A stretch of 31,622 nt of DNA from positions 1-31,622 of the forward strand of contig JAEOUH010000009.1 of assembly GCA_016839365.1 (NCBI GenBank), read 5' to 3'. A program made the translations under genes and the position numbers. The stretch comes from Candidatus Hermodarchaeota archaeon. Its GTDB lineage: Archaea; Asgardarchaeota; Hermodarchaeia; Hermodarchaeales; Hermodarchaeaceae. Shown in pieces: positions 3,369-31,622 of the stretch. Each line of letters begins with the position of its first letter. Positions within the stretch are counted from its first letter, which is position 1. The notes beneath the pieces were generated by a model, which ran no database searches, was not told the origin of the DNA, and saw only the letters and a list, made by a program, of their open reading frames with translations.

Positions 3369-4865
3369 TTGACCCGCGACCTGGACCGTCTTTTAGAGGC
3401 TGCAGATTCGGTGGCAAGCCACATCAACGACTGGATTGAAGCCAATGAGCAAATTTTTGTGACCTCACACCTAGATGCAGATGGCCTATCTGCTGCAGGT
3501 ATTATCGGTTCCGCATTAAATCGCCGAAACACCCCTTTCCAACTACGAATCGCACGTCAACTCGACGAAGTCTACCTATCAGAAATTTCCGGGAAGGGCT
3601 TTAACCACTATATCTTCTGTGACCTCGGGAGTGGGCAGTTAACGCAAATTAAAGAGGTATTAGGTGATGCAGAGAGTATCATATTAGATCATCATCCTCC
3701 CGGGTCCCTGAGGGTTCCTTCCAATATCCGTCAAGTTAACCCCCATGAGTGTGGATTTGATGCCACTTACGAAATCTCTGGTGCAGGAGTTGCCTATCTT
3801 GTCTCCCGTCACCTTGGTGGCTCAAATGAAGATCTAGCGGCATTAGCTGTTGTAGGCGCTTTAGGTGATGTTCAAGATCGTGGAAAACAACACGACTTTG
3901 TCGGATTAAACAAAGAAATCATCGTTGAAGATGCAATCGCTGCCGGAGTCATCGATCGATCTATTGACCTGCGGATTTTTGGACGAGAAACCCGTCCTAT
4001 CCACATCGCCTTACAATACACAAGTGATCCGTACATTCCAGGGATTAGCAACGATGCCGACGGAGCTTTGAATTTTTTAGCTGATCTTGATATTGATCTC
4101 CGTGAAGGTGATGAGTGGCGTACAATCGCATCCCTCTCCAAAGACGAAAAACGGAAACTCAACTCATCCCTTGTAACCCATATGCTCAAGCAAAATATTC
4201 CGCCACGTGAAGCCCAATCACTAATTGGCGTGGTATTCACACTCCTTCAAGAAGAGAGGGGGAGCTATCTTCGTGACGCTCGCATGTTTTCCACTCTGCT
4301 TAATTCCACGGGCCGCTCGAACCAAGGCAGCATTGGCGTCGCAGTGTCCATGGGTGATCGGGGTGCACTTCTTAGAAAGGCCGAAAACATCCTCAAAGAA
4401 TATCGGGAACAACTCGCATTGGGTCTTCAATGGTTAACTGCTGATCCCGCGGCGATAAAGAAACTACGCCTCATTCAGACCTTTCATGCTGAAGGTCGCG
4501 TTCCTGATACCATCGTGGGGTCTATTGCTGGTATGGCGTTGAACGCCCGGATAATCGATTGGACCAAACCGATTATTGCCTTTGTGTATTCCCGCGAAGG
4601 ACATGTCAAAGTCTCGGGGCGCACAACACGAGAAATCGTTGAGGCTGGAGCAGACCTCGGTGAAGCCATGTCACAGGCCGCCGAGGAAATCGGTAGCGGA
4701 GCGGTCGGTGGTGGGCACAACATTGCAGCGGGCGCAACGATTCCGCGAGGTCAGGAAGAGCGATTCTTGGGGATAATTGAACGGATTCTCCAAAAACAAA
4801 TGGGGCGAATGAAAGAGGTGACTTCTGACTCAGAGGAGAGTGCGAATGAGGAAACAATTAAATAG
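3369..4865 (+). CDS. RecJ/Cdc45-like DHH family nuclease (GAN-like)
   Basis: SHLDADG, DLGSG, ILDHH, VNPH, GDVQD, GGGHNIAAGA (DHHA1). Conserved position between rps15 and rps3ae. TTG start. Confidence 0.9.
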   Translation: MTRDLDRLLEAADSVASHINDWIEANEQIFVTSHLDADGLSAAGIIGSALNRRNTPFQLRIARQLDEVYLSEISGKGFNHYIFCDLGSGQLTQIKEVLGDAESIILDHHPPGSLRVPSNIRQVNPHECGFDATYEISGAGVAYLVSRHLGGSNEDLAALAVVGALGDVQDRGKQHDFVGLNKEIIVEDAIAAGVIDRSIDLRIFGRETRPIHIALQYTSDPYIPGISNDADGALNFLADLDIDLREGDEWRTIASLSKDEKRKLNSSLVTHMLKQNIPPREAQSLIGVVFTLLQEERGSYLRDARMFSTLLNSTGRSNQGSIGVAVSMGDRGALLRKAENILKEYREQLALGLQWLTADPAAIKKLRLIQTFHAEGRVPDTIVGSIAGMALNARIIDWTKPIIAFVYSREGHVKVSGRTTREIVEAGADLGEAMSQAAEEIGSGAVGGGHNIAAGATIPRGQEERFLGIIERILQKQMGRMKEVTSDSEESANEETIK

Positions 4866-10598: not shown

Positions 10599-11174
10599 AT
10601 GTACAAGCACATTGGCGAGCTTTATGCGAGCCCTGATAAAGAATTGAAAGACCTTATTCGTACGCGGCTTATTGAGTGGAGAAAAGAACCTGTAACGACC
10701 CGAATTGATAGGCCAACACGAATCGACCGGGCCCGTCAAATTGGTTATCGGGCCAAACAGGGTTACATCGTGGTACGCCAACGCATTTCCCGTGGATCTC
10801 GACGAAAACCAAGACCCATAATGGGTCGCAAACCCCGAAAGATGGGAACTGTAAAAATTACCCCTGGGCGCAGCCGTCAATGGATTGCTGAGGAGCGGAC
10901 CGCTAGAAAGTATCCAAACCTACGTATCTTAGGATCCTATCACATTGCCGAAGACGGAAAGAATCTCTGGTATGAAGTGGTACTCGTTGATCCCTCGCAT
11001 CCCGCTATACAGGCTGATCCACGAATTCGCTGGATCAGTGACCCCACTCACAAGGGACGTGTTTTCAGGGGATTAACTCCTGCTGGCAAAACATCTCGCG
11101 GGCTACGCCATCGAGGTACAGGTGCTGAGAAACTACGTCCCAGTATTGGAAAATACGGGCGACGTGGAAAATAG
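10599..11174 (+). CDS. rpl15e: 50S ribosomal protein L15e
   Basis: [54 protein letters not shown]. Confidence 0.98.
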
Positions 11175-11207
11175 CCGTATACGGTTCTTTTTGGAGCGTG
11201 TGTAATC

Positions 11208-11666
11208 GTGACCGCAACAGAAAGCGGGCCGATTCGACTAACTGTACAAGCCTCTGTCCAAGCCACCGAGGATGCTGAAAAGGTCCAAAAAGCGGTTGAA
11301 AATCTCTTTCCTGCAGACCTACGAAGCACACTAAAATTCAAAACAACAAAACTTCGAGGACACTACCATAACCCCATTCTTCGCCTAGAAACGCAACAAA
11401 CCCAACATGACCATATTGAAAGAATCTTAACTTCAATTGGCCAGTCATTATCCTCAGCGGATCGTGCTCAACTAGGTCGAACGTTTTCCTCCCGCATCGA
11501 CGAAAAGGGCGACCTTTTCATCCGGTTTAATAAACAAGAGGCTTATCAAGGACGAATCCGCATAATTCACCGCGGTGATTCAATTCGCCTGGTCATCCGG
11601 TTTTCAGGTCGAAAGCCCTCCATAAACCAGATTGAGAATCACTGCCGACAGTTCCAACTCATCTAG
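11208..11666 (+). CDS. DUF54/COG1325-type RNA-binding protein of the exosome superoperon
   Basis: VQATEDAEKV, GHYHNPI, LFIRFNKQEAY. Conserved position between rpl15e and rnp3. Confidence 0.85.
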   Translation: MTATESGPIRLTVQASVQATEDAEKVQKAVENLFPADLRSTLKFKTTKLRGHYHNPILRLETQQTQHDHIERILTSIGQSLSSADRAQLGRTFSSRIDEKGDLFIRFNKQEAYQGRIRIIHRGDSIRLVIRFSGRKPSINQIENHCRQFQLI

Positions 11667-11678
11667 GACCGGGACAGA

Positions 11679-12365
11679 ATGTCTGCATATGACTTCCACA
11701 TTCGATTACCCCCACAACCAGAAATAGCGGAGGTCCAACTCCTTCAGAAGGTAGCAGCGACATTAGGGTTTGCTGGACTAGCCATCGAATCATCCAAAGC
11801 CTTTACTGCTGACGCCGTGCATGAAAAGCTAACGATTTTTCGTCGAATAACACTCGTTCCTCGGAGTGCTGCACGACTACGTGCTCAAGTGGACAAACAC
11901 ACAAAAAATGCGAATCTCTTGGTAATTCAAGGCCGCTCAAAACCAATTTGGCTTGCAGCCGCTGAGATACCCGCTGTTCATATGGTGATGGCTAGAGAGA
12001 TTGAAGATTTCATGGTTATCGATTCCCAAACTGCCCGAGCAATGTCAAATCAGGGCAAACCCGTTGAGATATGCCTGCATAAGCTTCTAGTCCTGAACGG
12101 TGCTATTCGGTCTCGATTGATGCGAGTTATGAACTCGGCTATGGACCACCTAAGACGAGCTGATTGCCCCCTAATATTAACCTCAGGCGCCAGTAGGGCC
12201 TGTGAGCTTCGTTCTCCCCAAGACCTGATGGCACTCAGCTATCTTGCATCGGTCCCAGAGAACCTAGCCAAGGCTGCCATGATGCAGGAATCAAAGGTCC
12301 TTGTCTCAGCAATTCGACATTCAACTAGCGCCCGCTCAGTGGTACAAATCGGGAGGGAAAAGTAA
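11679..12365 (+). CDS. rnp3: Ribonuclease P protein component 3 (Rpp30)
   Basis: PHP-like YDFHI start, LILTSGA...LRSPQDL motif, and synteny. Confidence 0.85.
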   Translation: MSAYDFHIRLPPQPEIAEVQLLQKVAATLGFAGLAIESSKAFTADAVHEKLTIFRRITLVPRSAARLRAQVDKHTKNANLLVIQGRSKPIWLAAAEIPAVHMVMAREIEDFMVIDSQTARAMSNQGKPVEICLHKLLVLNGAIRSRLMRVMNSAMDHLRRADCPLILTSGASRACELRSPQDLMALSYLASVPENLAKAAMMQESKVLVSAIRHSTSARSVVQIGREK

Positions 12366-12367
12366 CG

Positions 12368-12724
12368 ATGCGGCTTCGCCAACGCTATCTCGCTATCCGA
12401 CTTCTCACCCATCAGAATCTTCCATCTGAACCCACTTTCCGAAACGCAATCTGGAACCAACTCCAGAGGCTATATGGCGAACTCGGCATGAGTCGAATTG
12501 GATTCTGGTTAACAGCTTACCATCCTGAAAAACAGAGTGCTATTATTCGCTGTCAGCACACACAGGTGCGTCCCCTACGTGCGGCCCTTGCAACAATTCG
12601 TCAAATTGATTCGACGCTTTTACTGATTCATGTGGTTGGAGTCAGCGGCTCCATTAAGAAGGCTTTGGCTTTTCTCCCCCAACTTGACCCAACGCATGTC
12701 GTGCGTTCTCGTAAGTATCGTTAG
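12368..12724 (+). CDS. rnp2: Ribonuclease P protein component 2 (Pop5/Rpp14)
   Basis: RQRYLA, LYGELG, IIRC.H, VSGSIKKA. Confidence 0.9.
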   Translation: MRLRQRYLAIRLLTHQNLPSEPTFRNAIWNQLQRLYGELGMSRIGFWLTAYHPEKQSAIIRCQHTQVRPLRAALATIRQIDSTLLLIHVVGVSGSIKKALAFLPQLDPTHVVRSRKYR

Positions 12725-12777
12725 ACACGAACGTCTATGCCAAAAAAGATAAAGCCCGCTTTGTCACCAAAATCACC

Positions 12778-12850
12778 GGGGTTCAGTGAAGCCCCGCCGC
12801 TCCAAACTGAGCCTTGTGCTATGACGATCTCGCGACGAGCCGAGAGCCCC
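12778..12850 (+). ncRNA. Box C/D 2'-O-methylation guide sRNA
   Basis: Terminal stem GGGGUUC (12778-84) / GAGCCCC (12844-50). Box C-like GUGAAGC 12786-92, D' CUGA 12807-10, C' AUGACGA 12821-27, D CCGA 12840-43, two 12-14 nt guides, and correct 3-nt-bulge K-turn geometry. A-rich promoter-like AAAAAAGATAAAG lies about 25 nt upstream. Confidence 0.75.
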
Positions 12851-12856
12851 CGCCTT

Positions 12857-13312
12857 TTATTCTGGTACGATATCGATATCGACGGATATTAAGAATCCCT
12901 GCCACAGCTGATAGGCTTTCATCCGGAACCGCAGTCCTCTCCTGCCATCAATAACCCAAACGCAAGGATTGTACTCCATGAATACCAAGTCGCTTCCCGA
13001 GGGTTCTGGAGGCGCCGGGTGTGAATGGTATATCCCCACCTGCTCTAATCCCTCATTCGCCGCTGCGGTGAGAATGCAATATTGATGTTCAGGGTCAATT
13101 TCAAAGGATGCGACTGACTTCGCAATATTAGCAGTTTCAACGACACGGACCACCTTTGCAATGAGGCCGTTTTCATTGTAGTTACCTAAAAGCAGTGCGC
13201 ACCCCTCTCGGGGCCATGCACGTCGGCGAATCGCGTATAACTGCCGACGATGCAGTGGTTCCATCTGAATTCGAGCGACGTGGGGTGAACTCATACGTGA
13301 ACCTACAGCCAA
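12857..13312 (-). CDS. JAMM/MPN+ (M67) metallo-isopeptidase
   Basis: PREGCALLLG (catalytic Glu) and YHSHP...PSGSD (HxH-x7-S-x2-D). The start may be ATG 13294. Confidence 0.92.
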   Translation of the reverse strand: MAVGSRMSSPHVARIQMEPLHRRQLYAIRRRAWPREGCALLLGNYNENGLIAKVVRVVETANIAKSVASFEIDPEHQYCILTAAANEGLEQVGIYHSHPAPPEPSGSDLVFMEYNPCVWVIDGRRGLRFRMKAYQLWQGFLISVDIDIVPE

Positions 13313-13382
13313 AGACTTAAAAGCTTCTCACCTTTTGAGTCATCGCAATCTCAAGCCACCCGACTCGAGGTTCCAACTGGCG

Positions 13383-13763
13383 ATGTCAAAAGATAGCTCA
13401 CAAGAACATCGTTTCATGCGTCGAAGTATGGTCATTAGTGCAGTAGTCATCGTCCTTTTCAGTATCTTAATTGCCCTGATGATATCAAGGTGGGGTCCGG
13501 TCGGTCCCTTTCTGGACTTCATTGGACCAGTTGTTACTGGTGTATTAGCAATTTTGCTACTCGTTCTGATTTTCATCGGGCTGGTTATTCTGTTTGGCAA
13601 TCTGCGAGAATATTATGGTGAAGCCCTTGGTTGGTTTGAAATCATCATCTTATTGATTATTGTCGTCGTTATTGCTTTCATCGGATTCGGTTGGCTTCAT
13701 GCCCTTCTCACTGGGCTTCTTTGCATCGGCGTCATTTATTATCTCCACGCAGCTCAAGACTAG
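13383..13763 (+). CDS. Small integral membrane protein (about 4 TM helices), unknown function
   Basis: Four hydrophobic stretches. GAGGT SD precedes ATG 13383 (ORF-track start is 13335). Confidence 0.75.
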   Translation: MSKDSSQEHRFMRRSMVISAVVIVLFSILIALMISRWGPVGPFLDFIGPVVTGVLAILLLVLIFIGLVILFGNLREYYGEALGWFEIIILLIIVVVIAFIGFGWLHALLTGLLCIGVIYYLHAAQD

Positions 13764-13914
13764 GTGACCTTTCCGAGTTCACAAAATCGGATTCTGTCAA
13801 TAACAAGATTTTAAAGGCGCTTTACCTAATCGGCAAACCTGCAAGACTAACGTAAGAGTAAGAGGGCTTTCACTAAACTCTCTTCTTATTCAGTGTTTAT
13901 GGAGGACCCCCTCA

Positions 13915-14622
13915 TTGTTCGGTGACACACAAAGCTATGACATTGCTCTGACTACATTTAGTCCTGAGGGACGCCTATATCAGGTAGAATACGCCTTTGA
14001 GGCGGTTCGAAAGGGTACTCCGGTTCTCGGAATTCGTGGGTCAGATGGGGTGGTTTTAACTGCTGCTATGCGCAAGCATGTTCTTCAAGAACCAAACCAT
14101 AACGATAAGATTTTCACCTTAGACGAATCAATTGGCACTGCCATCGCAGGCTTATCTGGCGATGCTCGTTCACTTGTTCGGTATGCCCGAGAGCTCGCAC
14201 AAATCAATCGACTAACCTTCGCTGAACCCATTTCCATAAAGGCGTTGAGTAAGAAAATCAGTGATCACCTACAATCATACACACAACAAGGCGGAACCCG
14301 TCCTTATGGCGTATCTATGTTGGTAATCGGTGTTGATTCCACTCCACAACTCTACCTTGTTACTCCAATCGGTGTTTTCTGGAGCTACAAGGCCTATGCC
14401 GTAGGAAACGCGGCTGACCAGATGAACACGATGTTGGAAAAGGAATATTCTCCCTCGCTTACTGTTGATGATGCGTTGCAGCTGGCCGTTCGGATTCACA
14501 AGGAAACATCACCTGCACCTATCCAACCTGGTGGGCTCTTAGCCGCCAAAATAACAATGATTGATAAGAAATTCGTTATCCTTGATGGTCAATCCGTTCA
14601 GCAGTTGCTGGAGTCAAGCTAG
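13915..14622 (+). CDS. psmA: 20S proteasome alpha subunit
   Basis: YDIALTTFSPEGRLYQVEYA, GLSGDAR, YTQQGGTRPYGVSML. TTG start after SD GGAGG. Confidence 0.96.
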   Translation: MFGDTQSYDIALTTFSPEGRLYQVEYAFEAVRKGTPVLGIRGSDGVVLTAAMRKHVLQEPNHNDKIFTLDESIGTAIAGLSGDARSLVRYARELAQINRLTFAEPISIKALSKKISDHLQSYTQQGGTRPYGVSMLVIGVDSTPQLYLVTPIGVFWSYKAYAVGNAADQMNTMLEKEYSPSLTVDDALQLAVRIHKETSPAPIQPGGLLAAKITMIDKKFVILDGQSVQQLLESS

Positions 14623-14642
14623 TTCGGAAAAAGGTGTTTGGT

Positions 14643-15383
14643 ATGTCTGGATTGGGTGGAATGCGTGGCGACAAACGGGTCGATTTAGGCGATGCAGCTA
14701 TAGCTCGATTAGACACCCATGGACATCGGTTCGAGCTCATCGTTGACCCGAAATTAGCTTGGAACTTTAAACAAGGCGAAGAGGTCGATGTCCGAGAGAT
14801 ACTCCAGGGTGAGACTGTCTTCGAGGATGCGTTACGAAGTAAGAAGGCTCCAATAGAAACCTTAGAGGACGCTTTTGGAACCACTGATGAGCTTGAAGTT
14901 GCTCGCATCATTCTCGAAAAAGGCTCGCTCCAGCTTACCACTGAACAACGACGAGAGATGGTTGAGAAGCGCCGACGTCAAGTGATAGATATAATTGTCC
15001 GTAACTCAATCAACCCCAAGACTGGACTTCCGCATCCCCCCACTCGTATCGAATCAGCAATGAATGAAGCGCACGTTGTCATCGATTCCACCCGGACGGC
15101 AGAGGAACAAGCCCGAGACGTCGTCAAAGCGCTCCAACCAATTATTCCGATCCGAATGGAAATTCAACAAGTTGCCATCAAGATCCCTCCTGATTTTGCT
15201 CCCAAGGCTTACGGCATTGTGGAGCAGCAAGGGCACATTGCCAAAGACGAATGGCAAAAAGATGGGTCCTGGATTGCGATCGTTGAGGTGCCAGCAGGCC
15301 TTAGAGGGGAACTGATTGAAGCTCTTAACAATCTTACCCGCGGTCGAGCAGAAATTAAAATCTTAAAGAAGGAAACAATGTAG
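14643..15383 (+). CDS. sdo1: Ribosome maturation factor SBDS/Sdo1
   Basis: ARL...GHRFELIVDP, AFGTTD, ILEKGSLQLTTEQRR, INPKTGLPHPPTRIE. Start is 14634 GTG or 14643 ATG. Confidence 0.95.
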   Translation: MSGLGGMRGDKRVDLGDAAIARLDTHGHRFELIVDPKLAWNFKQGEEVDVREILQGETVFEDALRSKKAPIETLEDAFGTTDELEVARIILEKGSLQLTTEQRREMVEKRRRQVIDIIVRNSINPKTGLPHPPTRIESAMNEAHVVIDSTRTAEEQARDVVKALQPIIPIRMEIQQVAIKIPPDFAPKAYGIVEQQGHIAKDEWQKDGSWIAIVEVPAGLRGELIEALNNLTRGRAEIKILKKETM

Positions 15384-15397
15384 GAGGCTAACCTCAA

Positions 15398-16108
15398 GTG
15401 TCAATTCATTTTGAACAACAAGACATCGTCGTCCCTGGACAGCTCCTCGCTGAAGGTGACTATCACACAGGTGAAGGGGCCTATATGGAACAGGAGAAAG
15501 TATACGCCTCGGTGATTGGTTTAGCAAAAATGAAGGGAAAAACGGTCTACGTAGTCCCCCTAAAAGGGCAGTATGTACCAAAACCCAGAGATATCATAAT
15601 TGGAAATGTTGTTGAAGTAACCTTGAACGGCTGGCTTTTAGATTTTCACAGCCCATATCCGGCAATGCTTCCAGTTATGCATGCACTATCTCGCCGTGAT
15701 GCAACACACGCCAAGGACAATCTCCGAAGATACTACGACGTTGGTGAAACGGTGGTTGCTGAAATCATTGCAGCAGACCGAACACGTGATCCCCTCGTTA
15801 CCACCCTTGGTCGCGGACTAGGGAAGGTTCGTGGTGGGGTACTAATGAACATAATCCCTACTCGGGTCCCCAGGCTCATTGGAAGAAAGGGCTCGATGAT
15901 AAATATGCTCAAATCCGAACTCCAAGTCGATATTGTTGTTGGGCAGAATGGGATTGTGTGGCTAAAAGGAAATCCTGCTCGAATGGAAATTGCACAGGAA
16001 GCAATTCGTCAAATCGAACGTGAAGCTCACACCAGTGGATTAACTGATCGCGTTCGAGACTTCATAACTGCAAAACTCACAGAACAAAATGGTGAAAAGA
16101 ATGAGTGA
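15398..16108 (+). CDS. rrp4: Exosome RNA-binding subunit Rrp4
   Basis: VVPGQLL, YVPKPRDIIIG (S1 domain), VPRLIGRKGSMI and VGQNG.VW (KH domain). Confidence 0.96.
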   Translation: MSIHFEQQDIVVPGQLLAEGDYHTGEGAYMEQEKVYASVIGLAKMKGKTVYVVPLKGQYVPKPRDIIIGNVVEVTLNGWLLDFHSPYPAMLPVMHALSRRDATHAKDNLRRYYDVGETVVAEIIAADRTRDPLVTTLGRGLGKVRGGVLMNIIPTRVPRLIGRKGSMINMLKSELQVDIVVGQNGIVWLKGNPARMEIAQEAIRQIEREAHTSGLTDRVRDFITAKLTEQNGEKNE

Positions 16109-19334: not shown

Positions 19335-20387
19335 ATGGCGGTAGTTTTCTTGAAACAACTCAATCCTTCCCTGTTCCTGAGAACCTTGTTGCAGAAGGCT
19401 AAGGATTCGGTGGCTTTAGTCTTGCATCAAAGTGCAGACCCTGACGCAATCGGCAGTGCTGCAGCATTAGCCCAATTGCTTTCGCAGGAAGCTCAGATTC
19501 GATCACAGATATTCGCCGAAAGCCTCAACCGCTCAGCCAACAATATTGTCACTCATTACCAAATAGAACTCACGGACCCAGAGGAACTCGCCCAGCATTC
19601 CACTATCGTATTGATCGATTTGAACAATGTTGAACAGTTAGGTGATCTTACCTCACACCTGCCACGAAAAGGAGCCACAATATTTTGCATCGATCATCAC
19701 GCACCTCACAAAAATCTCCCCCAATTGACGAACTACCTGCTATATGATGACCAAATCCGGTCCACAGCTGAACTCATCTTGTTTCTCTGGCAGGCAAGCA
19801 CCCATAAGTTAAGTGCCGATTCAGCCACGCAGTTAGCCTGCGGTCTTGTCTATGATTCAAGACACTTTCACATTGCCATGAAAAATACCTTTGAGCACTT
19901 TCTCATCTTACTCCAACATGGTGCCGATTATGAACGGGTACTCTCACTATTATCAACCCCATTAGATAAATCTGAACGCATCGCTCGCTTGAAAGCGACC
20001 CAACGCACAGTGGTATACGATGAGTTCGGTCTGCTCATTGTCGCGACGAAAATCCGATCCTATGAGGCCAGCGTGTGCAGAGCACTCATTGGGCTCGGGG
20101 CTGATATTGCAATTGCTTGTGCTGATAAACATGATGAGGTTCGAATTAGTGCCCGTTCGAACTTGTCCGTGAACCAGGAGACGGGTCTTGACTTGGCACG
20201 AGATGTCATGGAACCCTTAGGGGAAATGATTGGCGGCGCTGGCGGTGGTCATCCTTCGGCTGCTGGAGCGAATGGTGTGGCTTCCAGTGATCATGCCTTG
20301 GGACTTGCTCTCCAATTGATTCGGAAAGCTCTAAAAGCTCATCAGGCTGAATTTCAGCCAGCTTCTGATCAAGGTTCTGATAGGTGA
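19335..20387 (+). CDS. DHH/DHHA1 phosphoesterase (NrnA-like nanoRNase/pAp phosphatase)
   Basis: HQSADPDAIGS, CIDHH, YDSRHF, RISAR, GGGHPSAAG. Confidence 0.88.
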   Translation: MAVVFLKQLNPSLFLRTLLQKAKDSVALVLHQSADPDAIGSAAALAQLLSQEAQIRSQIFAESLNRSANNIVTHYQIELTDPEELAQHSTIVLIDLNNVEQLGDLTSHLPRKGATIFCIDHHAPHKNLPQLTNYLLYDDQIRSTAELILFLWQASTHKLSADSATQLACGLVYDSRHFHIAMKNTFEHFLILLQHGADYERVLSLLSTPLDKSERIARLKATQRTVVYDEFGLLIVATKIRSYEASVCRALIGLGADIAIACADKHDEVRISARSNLSVNQETGLDLARDVMEPLGEMIGGAGGGHPSAAGANGVASSDHALGLALQLIRKALKAHQAEFQPASDQGSDR

Positions 20388-26461: not shown

Positions 26462-27187
26462 ATGTCAGACTCCATTTCAGTTAATCATAGCTCTGGTCCG
26501 GAAGCCCTCGCTGAAGCCGTCACCCAAAACCACGTTATAGTGCTGGTTGATGTCCTCCGCGCTAGCAGCACCATCATCACCGCCCTCGCCAATGGGGCTT
26601 CCAAAATCATTCCGGTTCCCACCGTTGAAGAAGCCCGGGAACGAATCTATCATTATCCCAACGGATTTCTCGCCGGAGAGAGAGCTGCTCATCCACCCGC
26701 TGGTTTTGATTATGGCAACTCGCCACGCAGCTTCCTTACCACTCGTATCAAAGGGCATCCCATTATTCTTACCACTAGTAATTTCACCCGAACCCTGGGC
26801 AAACCTCCAGACACTGCAACAATCCTTGTCGGGGCGTTTCTGAATATTGACCATGTGGCAAAGACTGCCCGGTACCTTTCAGAAAAAACAGCACAGCCAA
26901 TCTCTGTCATTTCGGCCGGAAGTCTGCATGGAGTATCCACCGAAGATGACTTCACCTCGTATCATCTCATTATCCGAATAGAAGATCCGGAAGGTCCTCC
27001 CGGCTATGCTGATATTGGAGACTTATCCCGTGAACTCTTAGTGAGTCGTCACGGCAGCCTTCTGGTGCAAACAGGCTATGAAGATGATATCTATTTTTGC
27101 GCTCAACCCAATAGGTATAATCTAACTCCGATTCTCCGAGATGGAGGATTTGTCCCTTTTTCCTCGGAGATGAAAATCCCCGAGTAA
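26462..27187 (+). CDS. comB: ComB family (2-phosphosulfolactate phosphatase-like) phosphatase
   Basis: VDVLRASSTI, LAGER, GFDYGNSP, LTTSN.T, GAFLN, EDD. Confidence 0.9.
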   Translation: MSDSISVNHSSGPEALAEAVTQNHVIVLVDVLRASSTIITALANGASKIIPVPTVEEARERIYHYPNGFLAGERAAHPPAGFDYGNSPRSFLTTRIKGHPIILTTSNFTRTLGKPPDTATILVGAFLNIDHVAKTARYLSEKTAQPISVISAGSLHGVSTEDDFTSYHLIIRIEDPEGPPGYADIGDLSRELLVSRHGSLLVQTGYEDDIYFCAQPNRYNLTPILRDGGFVPFSSEMKIPE

Positions 27188-27330: not shown

Positions 27331-27417
27331 GCTACTGATTTCCACAAATCAAGGCTACTGTAGCTGACAAAAGAGACTTGGCAAATCCTTCGAATGCCAG
27401 GGGAGGTAGCGGCTAGT

Positions 27418-29607
27418 ATGAAGGAAGCCCGGAAAACGTCCGGCCTTCATATAGTGTATGCAATAATAGGTCTAACAATCCTGCTCAATGGAATACTTAC
27501 GCCATTTCCATTCGGCAATGTAGACCGTAGTCCATTTCATCAAACTATAAACCCTAATTGGCCAATTTGCCTTCTTGAGCCGGAGGTTCACCTCTCCTTT
27601 AAGGCGATGCAAACACCGATCGATCAAGGAACTCCTGTTGCTCAATTAAGTTGGTTGCAACAACGTATTTGGCTAAACTGGGATAGTCGAACAAAGTTTG
27701 GTGTAAACGTTGAACAGGGTTTGCTGCAAAGAGAAGTTTTGAATTTTACTCAGATTGTGCCTGAACCCGTCCAGGTAGCCGTAGAAGATTATGATCCTGC
27801 CAATTGTCCCTTTGAAGACTATATTTGGACCGATGAAGAATCATACATGAGCTTTTGCATTAACGGCTCTGATCCAGTACGGGTTGATGGGTTTTGGATA
27901 TACCTTCGAGGTGAATCGAAAGGAATTTTCCGCTATCGCGTTTATGGAGCTCAACCAGGAACCCAAGCGGCCACATTTGTCAACACCTCGGCTCCAATTA
28001 CGGGCTGGATTGAAGTACCGATATCGCCAACACTCGAACCAGGCGAGGAATACTGGTTTTGGATCAACACCAATGAAACTGAGCTAGTACTCAATCCCCT
28101 TGAAACATATGCTAACACCTTTTATTTTGGAATTGCTCGCGCCTTTGGAGCCACAACAGATACTCGAATTAACTGGGTATTCTGTCGGGATGATGCAAAT
28201 CCCGATGAAGAAGATGAGGGCGATTGCTATGGACGTATCAGCTCATGGTCTTATCGAACCCGCGATCTCTTTCTCAATGTGTCGATCCTTCCACTCAATC
28301 AAGACATATACCCAACTGAGATCGACATGACGGTAAATGGCAATGCTATCAGAGACCTTAGTTCCCCCGCACATGGAGTGTGGGAAAGCGAAGCATACCA
28401 ACCTCCTCTCCAAATCAATGGCGGCCCTCGTGAATACCAGGTTATGGTACTTTGGTCAGACTTTTATCAATGGCCGGTTCGGTTCGATGTACAATGGACC
28501 GGCTCTTTCCTTGATGAAATTCCCGTCTTCTCGGGACCAAGCTATGGCTATTTGGACGCAAACTGGCTAGTCACGATAATAGTAGATTTTCCAGCTGACA
28601 TCGACAATCAAACCATATTCCTCAGTCTGCCCCAAGATTGGATAGCCAAACGAATCACTCGCAACACCCTCGACTATAACGAATGGATACTGGACGATAC
28701 ACTTCTGTGCATTACCAATGCGGAAGACGGACTCTGGCACGTGTACTGCAGTATACCTGTTTCTCCCCTGGCAATCTATGGGCAGCTAATTATCTGGATT
28801 GCAATTGTTCTCATTCTAGTCCTTTTGGCTTTACTCGTTTTTTACCGTCAAAAGATCCTCCTACCTAAACAGCGGACCCACCGTCGCCGGCTTCAAGCAC
28901 TGGCTGATTCCTTCAATGATATTCACAAAATCCGACGAATACTGGTAATCCATAAAGAAACCGGTCTGTGTCTACTTGATCCGATCGTCGATCATAAAAT
29001 GAGGGCCAATTTGGTCAGTGCGTTAATTCAGGCCATCACCGCCTTTGGCGTAAACCTCACTGAAACCGAAGAGACGCCGGATCTAATTGATGACACGGCT
29101 TCTCTTCGGCAGATTACTTATCGGGATTTCCATATCATGGTCCATGATGGCCAATATACACGCAACGCCCTCATTTTCAAGCAGCCTCCTAGTAGCCAGT
29201 TAGATAAACGCCTGGAAGAATTCACCCTGCGCTTTGAGGAACGATATCAGGATGTGCTTGAAAACTGGGCCGGACGGTTAAACATCTTTGGCGATGCCAT
29301 TGATCTGGTTGATGAATACCTGTTCATTTCCCTTCGATTACCTCACACGCTACACGCTGATCAAGACACCTCGTCGCTTTCTCAAGTAGAACGCGTTCTC
29401 TACGGACAAGCGAAAAACCTCAATGCTGAAAGCAGTAAGTTCTTTATTTGTGATTTAGTCGAGAAATATCTCCGTGAAAAAGGAGTCGACCGAATCGAGG
29501 TCTTTGAAGCCTTGTTCAAGTTAAGACAAAAAGGGGTTATTGTCCCGATCCACACAGAAATTCCCTACGAATTTAGCCGCAATACCGTTTCGAATAACGG
29601 ACCTTGA
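27418..29607 (+). CDS. Receptor-like membrane protein: N-terminal signal/TM, extracellular beta-rich region, TM helix, cytoplasmic longin-like domain and C-terminal winged helix
   Basis: Hydrophobic IVYAIIGLTILLNGIL, then TM LIIWIAIVLILVLLALLVFY followed by RQK...RRR. ILVIHKETGLCL...LVSALIQAITAFG...F...FEERY...W.G....F is the Asgard longin-like pattern. EVFEALFKLRQKGVIVP is wHTH-like. SD GGGAGGT favours ATG 27418 over 27394. Confidence 0.75.
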   Translation: MKEARKTSGLHIVYAIIGLTILLNGILTPFPFGNVDRSPFHQTINPNWPICLLEPEVHLSFKAMQTPIDQGTPVAQLSWLQQRIWLNWDSRTKFGVNVEQGLLQREVLNFTQIVPEPVQVAVEDYDPANCPFEDYIWTDEESYMSFCINGSDPVRVDGFWIYLRGESKGIFRYRVYGAQPGTQAATFVNTSAPITGWIEVPISPTLEPGEEYWFWINTNETELVLNPLETYANTFYFGIARAFGATTDTRINWVFCRDDANPDEEDEGDCYGRISSWSYRTRDLFLNVSILPLNQDIYPTEIDMTVNGNAIRDLSSPAHGVWESEAYQPPLQINGGPREYQVMVLWSDFYQWPVRFDVQWTGSFLDEIPVFSGPSYGYLDANWLVTIIVDFPADIDNQTIFLSLPQDWIAKRITRNTLDYNEWILDDTLLCITNAEDGLWHVYCSIPVSPLAIYGQLIIWIAIVLILVLLALLVFYRQKILLPKQRTHRRRLQALADSFNDIHKIRRILVIHKETGLCLLDPIVDHKMRANLVSALIQAITAFGVNLTETEETPDLIDDTASLRQITYRDFHIMVHDGQYTRNALIFKQPPSSQLDKRLEEFTLRFEERYQDVLENWAGRLNIFGDAIDLVDEYLFISLRLPHTLHADQDTSSLSQVERVLYGQAKNLNAESSKFFICDLVEKYLREKGVDRIEVFEALFKLRQKGVIVPIHTEIPYEFSRNTVSNNGP

Positions 29608-30273
29608 TTACCGGCGCATCCAGGAAACCGTGCCTAGCTCAGTAACAAAAATGCAAGGCAAATCAAACTCGATGGCCAGTTGATACAAAGCCAATGCACA
29701 TACTTTCCCGCCTCCAGTCACGTCGACGAGAATGGCATACTCTCGAATCAAATCCTGGGAAAGGCGGTACACCAGTTCATACATTTTGCCCAAATCATGG
29801 ACGAAAATATCTTCGGGCACCTCATGCAGAACCTTATCGGGGGTTAATCCGCTTACCCGCCGCCTTGCGGTTTCTTCAATGAAATAATGGTATTTCTCGG
29901 GGCGAAAAGAGGTTTCAGCGCGAATCCGTTTCGGCACCGCATGCAACACACCCGGATCTTCCCCAACAGCTCCGATATAGGCCACGGGAGCGGTCACCCC
30001 TAGAACCCGGCGGACACTTTGGATTTCATGGGGAACTAACCGGGCTGCTTTCTCTTTCCCATCACGAAACCGCTCAATCAGCCCATTATTCTCCAAGTGT
30101 TGCAGATTAAAATACAGCATAGCATCGGACACTTCATCCACGGGTTTGGAGACCCGACGGGCGATGGCCGCTCGTAGCACCAGCCCGGTCTGGGGGCCAT
30201 CTAAGAGATTGCGGAGAATAATTCGGCGTGCTTCAACGCCGCCGATGACGCGTCTGACTTTACCCTCAGCCAC
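29608..30273 (-). CDS. Winged-HTH + CARF domain putative transcription regulator
   Basis: N-terminal RRIILRNLLDGPQTG..L...SDAMLYFNLQHLENNGLIERFRDG (ArsR/PadR-like wHTH). C-terminal AYIGAVGEDP (CARF motif I-like) and ILVDVTGGGKVCALALY (CARF DxTGGxK motif II). GTG start after SD GGTGG. Confidence 0.8.
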   Translation of the reverse strand: MAEGKVRRVIGGVEARRIILRNLLDGPQTGLVLRAAIARRVSKPVDEVSDAMLYFNLQHLENNGLIERFRDGKEKAARLVPHEIQSVRRVLGVTAPVAYIGAVGEDPGVLHAVPKRIRAETSFRPEKYHYFIEETARRRVSGLTPDKVLHEVPEDIFVHDLGKMYELVYRLSQDLIREYAILVDVTGGGKVCALALYQLAIEFDLPCIFVTELGTVSWMRR

Positions 30274-30417
30274 TCTCTACCACCATGGATGTACTCTTCT
30301 CTAATGAGTGAAGCGCTCCCAGAATGTTGGGTGCTACATTAAAACCCTGCAAAGCCCGGCATATAAATGCCTCGTCGCAGCAACCCTTCTCCTAGACGAG
30401 TTTGCGGTTTAATTCAA

Positions 30418-30449
30418 CATCTCTATCACTAATAACGTTGATAGAGATG
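30418..30449. promoter_or_regulatory. Perfect 11-bp inverted repeat, putative operator between divergent promoters
   Basis: CATCTCTATCA-N10-TGATAGAGATG. It lies between a minus-strand TATA-like TTTATAT (30361-30367) and a plus-strand TTTAAAAG (30471-30478). Confidence 0.65.
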
Positions 30450-30584
30450 ACTGCAAAAAGTGCCTCAATCTTTAAAAGTAAAATTCGAAGTGCTACAACT
30501 GGGAATACAAAGACCAGCCTGGGAAGTATTCCAGCTGACTTACCCTTTTAACAAACCCCCCTTCGAAGGAGATGAACGTATCCA

Positions 30585-31622
30585 ATGACAGAAGAAGAAA
30601 TGGTCACCGCCAAACCCTTGGTGGTTGACAACGGTACCGGCCTTAGCAAAAACGGCTATGCCGGTGAAGACCAGCCACGCAGCGTGTTCCCCACGCTCAT
30701 CGGCTACCCCAAGTATCCCGCCTACATGACCGACGTCGAACACTACACTCGTGAATACTACATCGGCGAAGAAGCACTCCAACTTCGAGGTGTCCTGAAA
30801 CTCGTCTACCCCATCGCCCACGGCCAAATCACCGACTGGCCCGCCATGGAAAAGATCTGGCACTACACCTTCTACAACGACCTCCGCATCGACCCCACCG
30901 AACACCCGGTCCTCCTTACTGAGGCTCCACTGAACCCACGCGCCAACCGCGAAAAGATGGCCGAAATCATGTTCGAAACCTTCAACGTCCCCGCCATCTA
31001 CGTGGCCATGCAAGCTGTCCTCAGCCTGTACGCCTCCGGGCGGACCACCGGACTTGTTATTGACTCGGGTGACGGTGTTACCCACATTGTCCCCATCTAC
31101 GAAGGCTTCGCCCTGACCCACGCCATCAGCCGCGTCGACTTAGCCGGCCGCGACATCACCGAATACCTCCGCCGATTACTCCGGCAGCGAGGCTATTCTT
31201 TGACCACCACCGCCGAACGCGAAATCGTCCGCGACATCAAAGAAAAACTCTGCTATGTCGCCCTCGAACCCGAGAAAGAAACCAAACTCGCCGAAAAAGT
31301 CGCCGGCATGGAAAAGAAATACATGCTCCCCGACGGCAGCACCCTCACCGTCGGCGCCGAACGCTTCCAAGGCCCCGAAGTCCTCTTCAACCCCGGCGCC
31401 ATCGGCGTCGAAGCCCAACCCCTCGACGACGCCATCGTCGAAGCCGTCCGCAAATGCGACGTCGACCTCCGACGCGACCTCTACGCCAACATCGTCCTCT
31501 CCGGCGGCACCACCATGTTCCCCGGACTCAAAGAACGCCTCCGCAAAGAAATCATCGAACAGATCCCCGAAAACGTCGAAGTCAAAATCGTCGCCCCACC
31601 CGAACGCATGTACTCCGTCTGG
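30585..31622 (+). CDS. Asgard actin (Lokiactin-type), 3' truncated by window
   Basis: Manual translation: [42 protein letters not shown]...YPIAHG...[14 protein letters not shown]...[67 protein letters not shown]...DLAGRDIT...[17 protein letters not shown]...[16 protein letters not shown]...[19 protein letters not shown] upstream. Absent from the ORF track because there is no stop in the window. Confidence 0.98.

Follow-up and report, generated by a model that had tools for sequence, protein, structure and literature searches.

Regulators and effectors built on the CARF domain are known from several settings. Csa3 of the Sulfolobales (PDB 2wte, 6wxq, 6w11) is a dimeric, ligand-sensing DNA-binding protein that responds to cyclic tetra-adenylate (cA4) and joins a CARF domain to a winged helix-turn-helix (wHTH) without an effector enzyme. 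RtcR, a bacterial CARF-AAA+-HTH activator of the rtcBA RNA-repair operon, is a CARF transcription factor that works outside CRISPR, on a housekeeping target and with a signal other than a cyclic oligoadenylate (cOA) (PMC7790460, PMC9650030, PMC4012209). The CARF4-type proteins Can2, Card1, VC1899 and Cdn1 carry a PD-(D/E)xK nuclease that is activated by cA4 or cyclic tri-adenylate (cA3). The CARF_m5 family of PADLOC-DB includes proteins of roughly 215-225 amino acids, ordered wHTH then CARF, that lie in type III-D CRISPR loci. Here we describe a putative CARF_m5 regulator encoded head-to-head with an actin gene in a member of the Asgard archaea, Candidatus Hermodarchaeota archaeon. The window, meaning the whole stretch of DNA analyzed, is the entire 31,622-nt contig JAEOUH010000009.1 of a 2.2-Mb metagenome-assembled genome (MAG) that is 84% complete, and all statements of absence below are limited by the incompleteness of such genomes. 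What is new is the reversed architecture relative to Csa3, the conserved pairing with the Asgard actin gene and the persistence of the regulator in lineages without Cas10. Literature searches on CARF or PadR with Asgard actin, on the neighbors of lokiactin and on CARF_m5 found no paper describing this link, in agreement with an earlier note on the window, made from the sequence alone, whose authoring model knew of none.

The regulator gene (29608-30273, minus strand), identified by its open reading frame (ORF) and its family profile match, encodes 221 amino acids from a GTG start to a stop codon at 29608-29610. Because the open frame spans only 222 codons, the gene cannot be longer and leaves no room for an additional domain. 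The actin gene (30585-31622, plus strand), of the Asgard Loki type, is partial since the contig end cuts it after 346 codons (Pfam Actin, E 9.6e-115). Between the two lies a 311-bp spacer (30274-30584) that constitutes a divergent promoter region common to both genes. The earlier note had described exactly this layout, a 221-residue protein with an N-terminal wHTH and a C-terminal CARF domain bearing a DxTGGxK motif, divergent from actin across 311 bp, and the ORF coordinates together with the actin match bear it out. Its further remarks on what is missing hold as well: the 221-residue ORF contains no nuclease or other effector domain, no cas gene was found among the 24 other window ORFs scanned against Pfam (about nine ORFs in 10599-16108 were outside the scan), and the window contains no tandem array. 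A crude scan of the 2.2-Mb assembly likewise returned no CRISPR-like array.

The identity of the C-terminal domain, which the earlier note had proposed to check, was examined by structure prediction and structural comparison. In an AlphaFold2 (AF2) model built with 17 homologues (predicted local distance difference test, pLDDT, 87.3; predicted template-modeling score, pTM, 0.81), residues 94-221 (29611-29994, minus strand) form a six-stranded Rossmann-like core with strands at 97-103, 125-133, 147-152, 180-184, 207-210 and 216-220. Strands 5 and 6 make up a terminal beta-hairpin, the arrangement by which the CARF superfamily is defined (PMC4012209). The top Foldseek matches in the PDB were Csm6, Can2, VC1899, Cam1 and Cdn1, all with a probability of 1.0 and E values of 3e-5 to 1e-3. 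Superposition of residues 94-221 with VIA-align gave Z scores of 10.6-14.4 and root-mean-square deviations of 1.9-2.9 A over 113-127 residues, and the 44 best entries were all CARF proteins, including VC1899, Can2, Cdn1, Card1, ring nucleases, Csm6 and Csa3. The best of these structural matches were Can2, Card1, VC1899 and Cdn1 (Z 13.0-14.4), from which the window protein differs in having no nuclease, while the CARF domain of Csa3 superposed at Z 10.6-11.2. Judged by the predicted structure, residues 94-221 are a true CARF domain.

The N-terminal wHTH (residues ~4-92; 29998-30264, minus strand) was recognized through structural and Pfam matches. Residues 4-92 of the model matched RosR/PadR regulators at Z 9.6-10.3 (hsRosR 6qh0, Z 10.3; PadR Rv3488, Z 9.9; VIA-align). 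Its match to the Pfam PadR profile (PF03551) reached E 1.5e-3 and 19 bits against a cut-off of 27, so that the fold alone is common to the two and the protein falls outside the PadR family; where PadR has a C-terminal dimerization helix, the window protein has the CARF domain. The third helix of the wHTH, VSDAMLYFNLQHLENNG (30082-30132, minus strand; alignment and AF2 model), is the best-conserved stretch of the regulator across Asgard families and is presumed to be the recognition helix.

At the level of sequence families, the PADLOC profile CARF_m5 (PDLC01987) matched the regulator nearly end to end (E 3.2e-44, 149 bits, residues 15-218 on profile positions 9-194 of 195), and the same profile matched all 27 relatives examined with it (best E 2.2e-80). 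Since this full-length match is accompanied by the CARF signature described below, we assign the regulator to this catalogued minor CARF clade. The Csa3 profile TIGR01884 gave a weak match (E 0.011, 15.2 bits against a cut-off of 60.2), and the domain order, wHTH then CARF, also places the protein outside Csa3. A single-sequence search of PDB sequences returned no match, and a profile search of the same sequences returned a weak match to Can2 (E 0.1) in which NVTGGTK was aligned with DVTGGGK. In public annotations the relatives appear as "hypothetical" or "PadR family", and none is labeled CARF.

Among 400 genomes of the phylum searched with a profile, 134 contained the family, and about 80 loci were examined; numbered families (f) are GTDB families, with lineage labels taken from record titles and cluster names. 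The regulator is head-to-head with actin in 10 GTDB families, namely f1 (Hermod, the family of the window), f2, f3 (Atabey), f4 and f5 (both Baldr), f14 (Frey/Jord), f26, f27 (Odin, including LCB_4), f30 and f31 (Thor), with 27 of 27 examined loci so arranged in Thor. It is in tandem with actin in f15, lies 3.4 kb from actin or elsewhere in the genome in f17, and is unlinked to actin in f13 and f16 (Hel). The adjacency that the earlier note had proposed to survey is therefore conserved across most Asgard lineages that carry the regulator gene. In a maximum-likelihood tree the unlinked lineages are nested inside actin-linked ones, with f13 sister to f14 (100/99) and f15, f16 and f17 forming a clade (97/99); linkage to actin is thus ancestral and secondarily lost. 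On its other side the regulator has a conserved tail-to-tail neighbor, a ComB-like 2-phosphosulfolactate phosphatase (26462-27187, plus strand, in the window; PF04029, E 1.6e-46). This neighbor adjoins the regulator in Hermod, Frey/Jord, Atabey, f2, f13 and Hel, and persists even where actin no longer adjoins it, and the ancestral order was probably actin, regulator, comB. One MAG (also G104) has two contigs, L003 and L007, each with an actin-regulator pair whose regulators are 92% and 86% identical to that of the window, probably because the MAG combines two strains rather than through duplication. In G110, of genus g2, the actin gene (L011:4609-5677, L027:2484-3552) aligns in two pieces, residues 1-47 and 47-346, with about 28 nt between them, a pattern that points to an error of assembly, a frameshift or a short insertion around codon 47.

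More distant members of the family suggest where the regulator came from. Weak matches in f20 (19-22% identity) have the same wHTH-CARF architecture with the motif ELTGSTK or EITGGTK, and they sit inside type III-D loci with Cas10, Csm3, Csx10, Csm2 and Cas1. One of them (L065) is divergent from cas10, its presumed target operon, and so has the same regulator-target layout as the window regulator and actin. These members share the domain order and size of the window protein; the window clade differs in its actin neighbor and in genomes without Cas10. The placement of these sister CARF_m5 members among type III-D cas genes makes the actin-linked clade look like an exaptation. The type III-linked members form a long separate branch of the tree, and since the tree is unrooted the direction from CRISPR to actin is only an inference.

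The sequence signature of the CARF superfamily, [DN]x[ST]xxx[RK] just after strand 4 (PMC4012209), is satisfied exactly by D184-V-T-G-G-G-K190 (29704-29724, minus strand), which alignment, profile and dimer model place on the predicted dimer axis and which the earlier note had picked out as DxTGGxK. The D, T/S, G and K/R positions of this motif II are retained throughout the family of the window, at regulator identities of 66-100%, and in 11 of 14 families. A polar S/T at the end of strand 1 is frequent, although not universal, in the superfamily (PMC4012209); the window protein has IGAVGEDP in this region, which contains neither residue, while S or T is present in some relatives (GAISQDP, GGLTEDP), and what is conserved instead is a D/E-P pair. 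Orthologues in Thor (f31; L059-L064, L083-L102) are about 40 amino acids longer, with inserts in the wHTH and after CARF strand 3, and the K/R of their motif II is replaced by P, A or T (e.g. DVSLGPP).

Two copies of the regulator were predicted to form a symmetric dimer (ipSAE 0.53 against 0.17 for the best control, partner pLDDT 89), and the runs agreed in at least 95% of contacts. The mark used for this score is reached by 20 of 30 solved homodimers and by one of 23 solved monomers; the pass may reflect mere likeness, since CARF dimers have already been solved. The predicted interface (159-162, 185, 188-190, 193-201 and 209-219) lies wholly within the CARF domain along the canonical CARF axis, and because it includes residues 188-190, K190 would face K190 on the two-fold axis as in solved CARF dimers. 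The regulator therefore probably dimerizes, according to these models, through its CARF domains, with a pocket on the two-fold axis.

Ten members of the family, with regulators that share 67-97% identity, were used to align the spacer. In its minus-strand reading, GCATATAAAT (30359-30368) is the presumed TATA box of the regulator and is invariant in 10 of 10 members. The presumed TATA-like box of actin, CTTTAAAAG (30470-30478, plus strand), is also invariant, and both ribosome-binding sites are invariant or nearly so. A repeat search found, between the two boxes, a perfect inverted repeat with 11-bp arms, CATCTCTATCA-N10-TGATAGAGATG (30418-30449), which we regard as the candidate operator. Arms of this length were reached in none of 1000 dinucleotide shuffles, and the half-site centers are 21 bp, or two helical turns, apart. 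The repeat is unique in the 2.2-Mb assembly, where a search for further copies of the palindrome returned no exact match and near matches at chance level only. Its right arm, which is invariant in the family, lies in a near-invariant block, ATAACGTTGATAGAGATGAC (30432-30451), from which the two most divergent of the ten members differ at one or two positions; the left arm is variable, but the ATCA..TGAT symmetry is kept. The actin TATA-like box begins 20 bp downstream of the repeat, and a site at this distance upstream is, we infer, typical of archaeal activators. Activation of actin is suggested by this position just upstream of its TATA box.

A second conserved block of 32 nt, GGGAATAC..CCAGCCTGG..GTATTCC (30501-30532, plus strand), is almost invariant in the family and lies near the predicted actin transcription start or in the 5' leader, where it may serve as an alternative or second operator. 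The possibility that it forms an RNA hairpin in the actin leader was considered and found no support (fold energy z = 0.10). The spacers of Thor have the palindrome GAATCTAGATTC at a similar position. In metatranscriptomes from wetland and sediment, contigs of close relatives span the actin ORF with 90-99% identity, and one of them extends 64 nt upstream of the ATG, which fits, without proving, a predicted transcription start near 30500. No RNA contig was found on the regulator; this absence is uninformative on its expression because the contigs come from relatives at small word shares. In f17, whose two genes are no longer neighbors, the actin TATA box is preceded at a distance of about 25 bp by ATAGATGAYAATG, which has a short inverted repeat, and nothing like it occurs upstream of the regulator.

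A source for the ligand was sought among known cyclases; the earlier note, too, had suggested that co-occurrence with cas10 or other cyclases be surveyed. Models of Cas10 (Csm1 and Cmr2) matched nothing in the 19 genomes of the window's family, its own included, which are 72-91% complete. In f3, Csm1 was found in none of three genomes, including the one-contig genome G002, whereas some other families with the actin-regulator pair have Cas10-like matches. Searches of the window's own assembly for DAC, GGDEF and class III cyclase came back empty, and its SMODS match, considered as a possible CD-NTase, was rejected because it is the CCA-adding enzyme. The survey was thus negative for the window's lineage, where a Cas10-made cOA is unlikely because Cas10 is absent from the 19 genomes of the family and other cyclases are absent from the assembly itself. 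The two marks of an ancillary protein of type III CRISPR, co-occurrence with Cas10 and location in or near a cas locus, are likewise missing from these genomes and from the scanned parts of the window.

Taken with the known systems, the window protein would be a one-component transcription factor in which a PadR/RosR-like winged helix is followed by a CARF sensor. Like Csa3 it combines CARF and wHTH without an effector enzyme; it differs in its reversed domain order, its PadR/RosR-type wHTH, its location outside a CRISPR locus and its presumed cytoskeletal target. RtcR, in contrast, belongs to the sigma54 enhancer-binding proteins and has an AAA+ module, and its divergent CARF domain mostly lacks the basic residue, whereas the window protein is a minimal, two-domain archaeal factor with a canonical motif. 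We consider the odds somewhat better than even that it is a dimeric, ligand-gated local regulator that sits between the divergent promoters and tunes both actin and itself in response to a ligand not made by Cas10. In such a mechanism, two DxTGGxK loops would line a pocket on the two-fold axis of the predicted CARF-CARF dimer, and the protein would probably bind the palindrome at 30418-30449 between the core promoters of the two genes. A small, probably nucleotide-derived molecule in this pocket would then alter DNA binding and so tune transcription of actin and of the regulator, and in this lineage it would not be a product of Cas10. On this view the clade would have arisen when a type III CRISPR-associated regulator was exapted to serve a housekeeping target. 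More tentatively, and on balance doubtfully, an antiviral-type CARF may have been exapted early in Asgard evolution as a ligand-gated actin switch that answers to an endogenous nucleotide signal of non-Cas10 origin.

Several observations weigh against such a ligand-gated actin regulator. No candidate synthase for the ligand emerged from the searches described above. Motif II no longer has its basic residue in Thor (f31), f30 and f2 despite perfect actin adjacency, so that ligand gating is either not universal or involves a different ligand; the CARF domain of RtcR likewise mostly lacks this residue, which has been read as a sign of a different ligand (PMC4012209). Actin occurs without this regulator in three large Asgard families (f20, f7 and f19), where the gene divergent from actin encodes an unrelated protein of 338-350 amino acids, not a hidden orthologue. 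ComB is a conserved neighbor too, and the conservation may therefore be in part plain synteny. Exact 7-9-nt k-mers were not shared among the spacers of different families above dinucleotide shuffles, and for that reason no rigorously conserved cross-family operator is claimed. A TAGAYGATATC-like element does recur in f26, f14, f5, f27 and f4, with TAGAYGATATC or GATATC enrichment equaled in 0-7 of 300 shuffles, but this element was chosen post hoc, after the data had been seen. Finally, the whole functional scheme, from DNA binding through ligand gating to whether actin goes up or down, is deduced from sequence, predicted structure and gene context.

These points bear differently on the alternatives. 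The CARF domain may be a dimerization scaffold that senses nothing, which would make the protein a local regulator that acts on the actin promoter region constitutively or under autoregulation alone. Such a scaffold would agree with the loss of the motif II K/R from Thor, f30 and f2, all of which retain the pairing with actin, with a predicted interface that lies entirely within the CARF domain and with the lack of Cas10 and of other cyclases noted above. We nevertheless judge it unlikely, since the window's family and 11 of 14 families preserve D, T/S, G and K/R in the motif, and this retention argues for selection on the pocket and not on the interface alone. It is rather unlikely, too, that the adjacency reflects nothing but an inherited gene order, with no regulation of actin by the protein, which would control other genes or only itself. 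The equal conservation of ComB, which stays with the regulator where actin has been lost (f13, f16), and the Hel-type and f13 lineages, which keep the regulator away from actin, would agree with this. Against it stand the head-to-head arrangement with a short spacer in 10 families and at each of the 27 Thor loci examined, the usual layout of divergent regulator-target pairs, which the type III paralogue shares with cas10, the single occurrence of the palindrome in the assembly, and the operator-like element of f17, which follows actin and not the regulator.

The earlier note had inferred a ligand-responsive regulator of actin, with two branches: antiviral signaling coupled to the cytoskeleton, or a CARF domain repurposed for housekeeping. 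A dedicated local regulator of the actin promoter region is supported by fold and adjacency, but the antiviral branch is disfavored here and the housekeeping branch, for which RtcR is a precedent, fits better. Antiviral cOA signaling, from type III CRISPR or another defense cyclase, to actin expression would be suggested by the closeness of the CARF fold to the cA4/cA3-binding Can2, Card1, Cdn1 and VC1899, by the canonical motif, by the sister CARF_m5 members in type III-D loci and by the Cas10-like matches in some pair-bearing families. With Csm1 and Cmr2 in 0 of 19 family genomes, Csm1 in 0 of 3 in f3, and an assembly without a CD-NTase or a CRISPR array, we hold it to be quite improbable. 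That the protein acts by itself as a ring nuclease or cOA sponge to which a wHTH is attached is very improbable indeed: Sis0811, Sis0455 and Sso2081 are among the structural matches (Z 11.3-13.3), but the lineage, being without Cas10, offers no source of cOA, the loop after strand 1 has no conserved Ser/Thr, and the conserved promoter-sharing layout points to a DNA-binding role. The ligand-gated regulator of actin thus remains the reading that we prefer.

In the rest of the contig, the 24 scanned ORFs are either housekeeping genes (KEOPS parts, ribosomal proteins, an exosome subunit, an energy-coupling factor (ECF) transporter, ComB) or have no assignment. Genes of t6A synthesis are dispersed over the contig (566-2201, 22883-23482 and 24065-24715) and encode Kae1/TsaD, an overlapping Bud32-like kinase, Cgi121 and Sua5. 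DHH-type phosphoesterases degrade short oligonucleotides and cyclic dinucleotides. Two members of this family are encoded in the window, a DHH-CID/DHHA1 RecJ/GAN-like protein (3369-4865, plus strand) and a 350-amino-acid DHH/DHHA1 NrnA-like protein (19335-20387, plus strand). Between comB and the regulator a gene for a 737-amino-acid protein with a predicted membrane span is inserted (27394-29607, plus strand). It has no Pfam or NCBIfam match, and within the window's genus only some members have it; L006/L024 lack it, as does genus g2. No nucleotide separates its stop codon (29605-29607) from that of the regulator (29608-29610), and the convergent transcripts must therefore overlap or collide.

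The pair described here provides a handle on the control of eukaryote-like actin in Asgard archaea that can be tested in vitro, as it consists of one small, soluble protein, 311 bp of DNA and a defined palindrome, and the orthologue of the thermophilic Odin LCB_4 (WEU40861.1) lends itself well to biochemical work. A functional CARF pocket would point to a new nucleotide signal in organisms without type III CRISPR. The proposed regulator, if true, would be the second clear case after RtcR in which a defense-type sensor was recruited to housekeeping, and it would mean that small-molecule control of a eukaryote-like cytoskeleton gene predates the eukaryotes.

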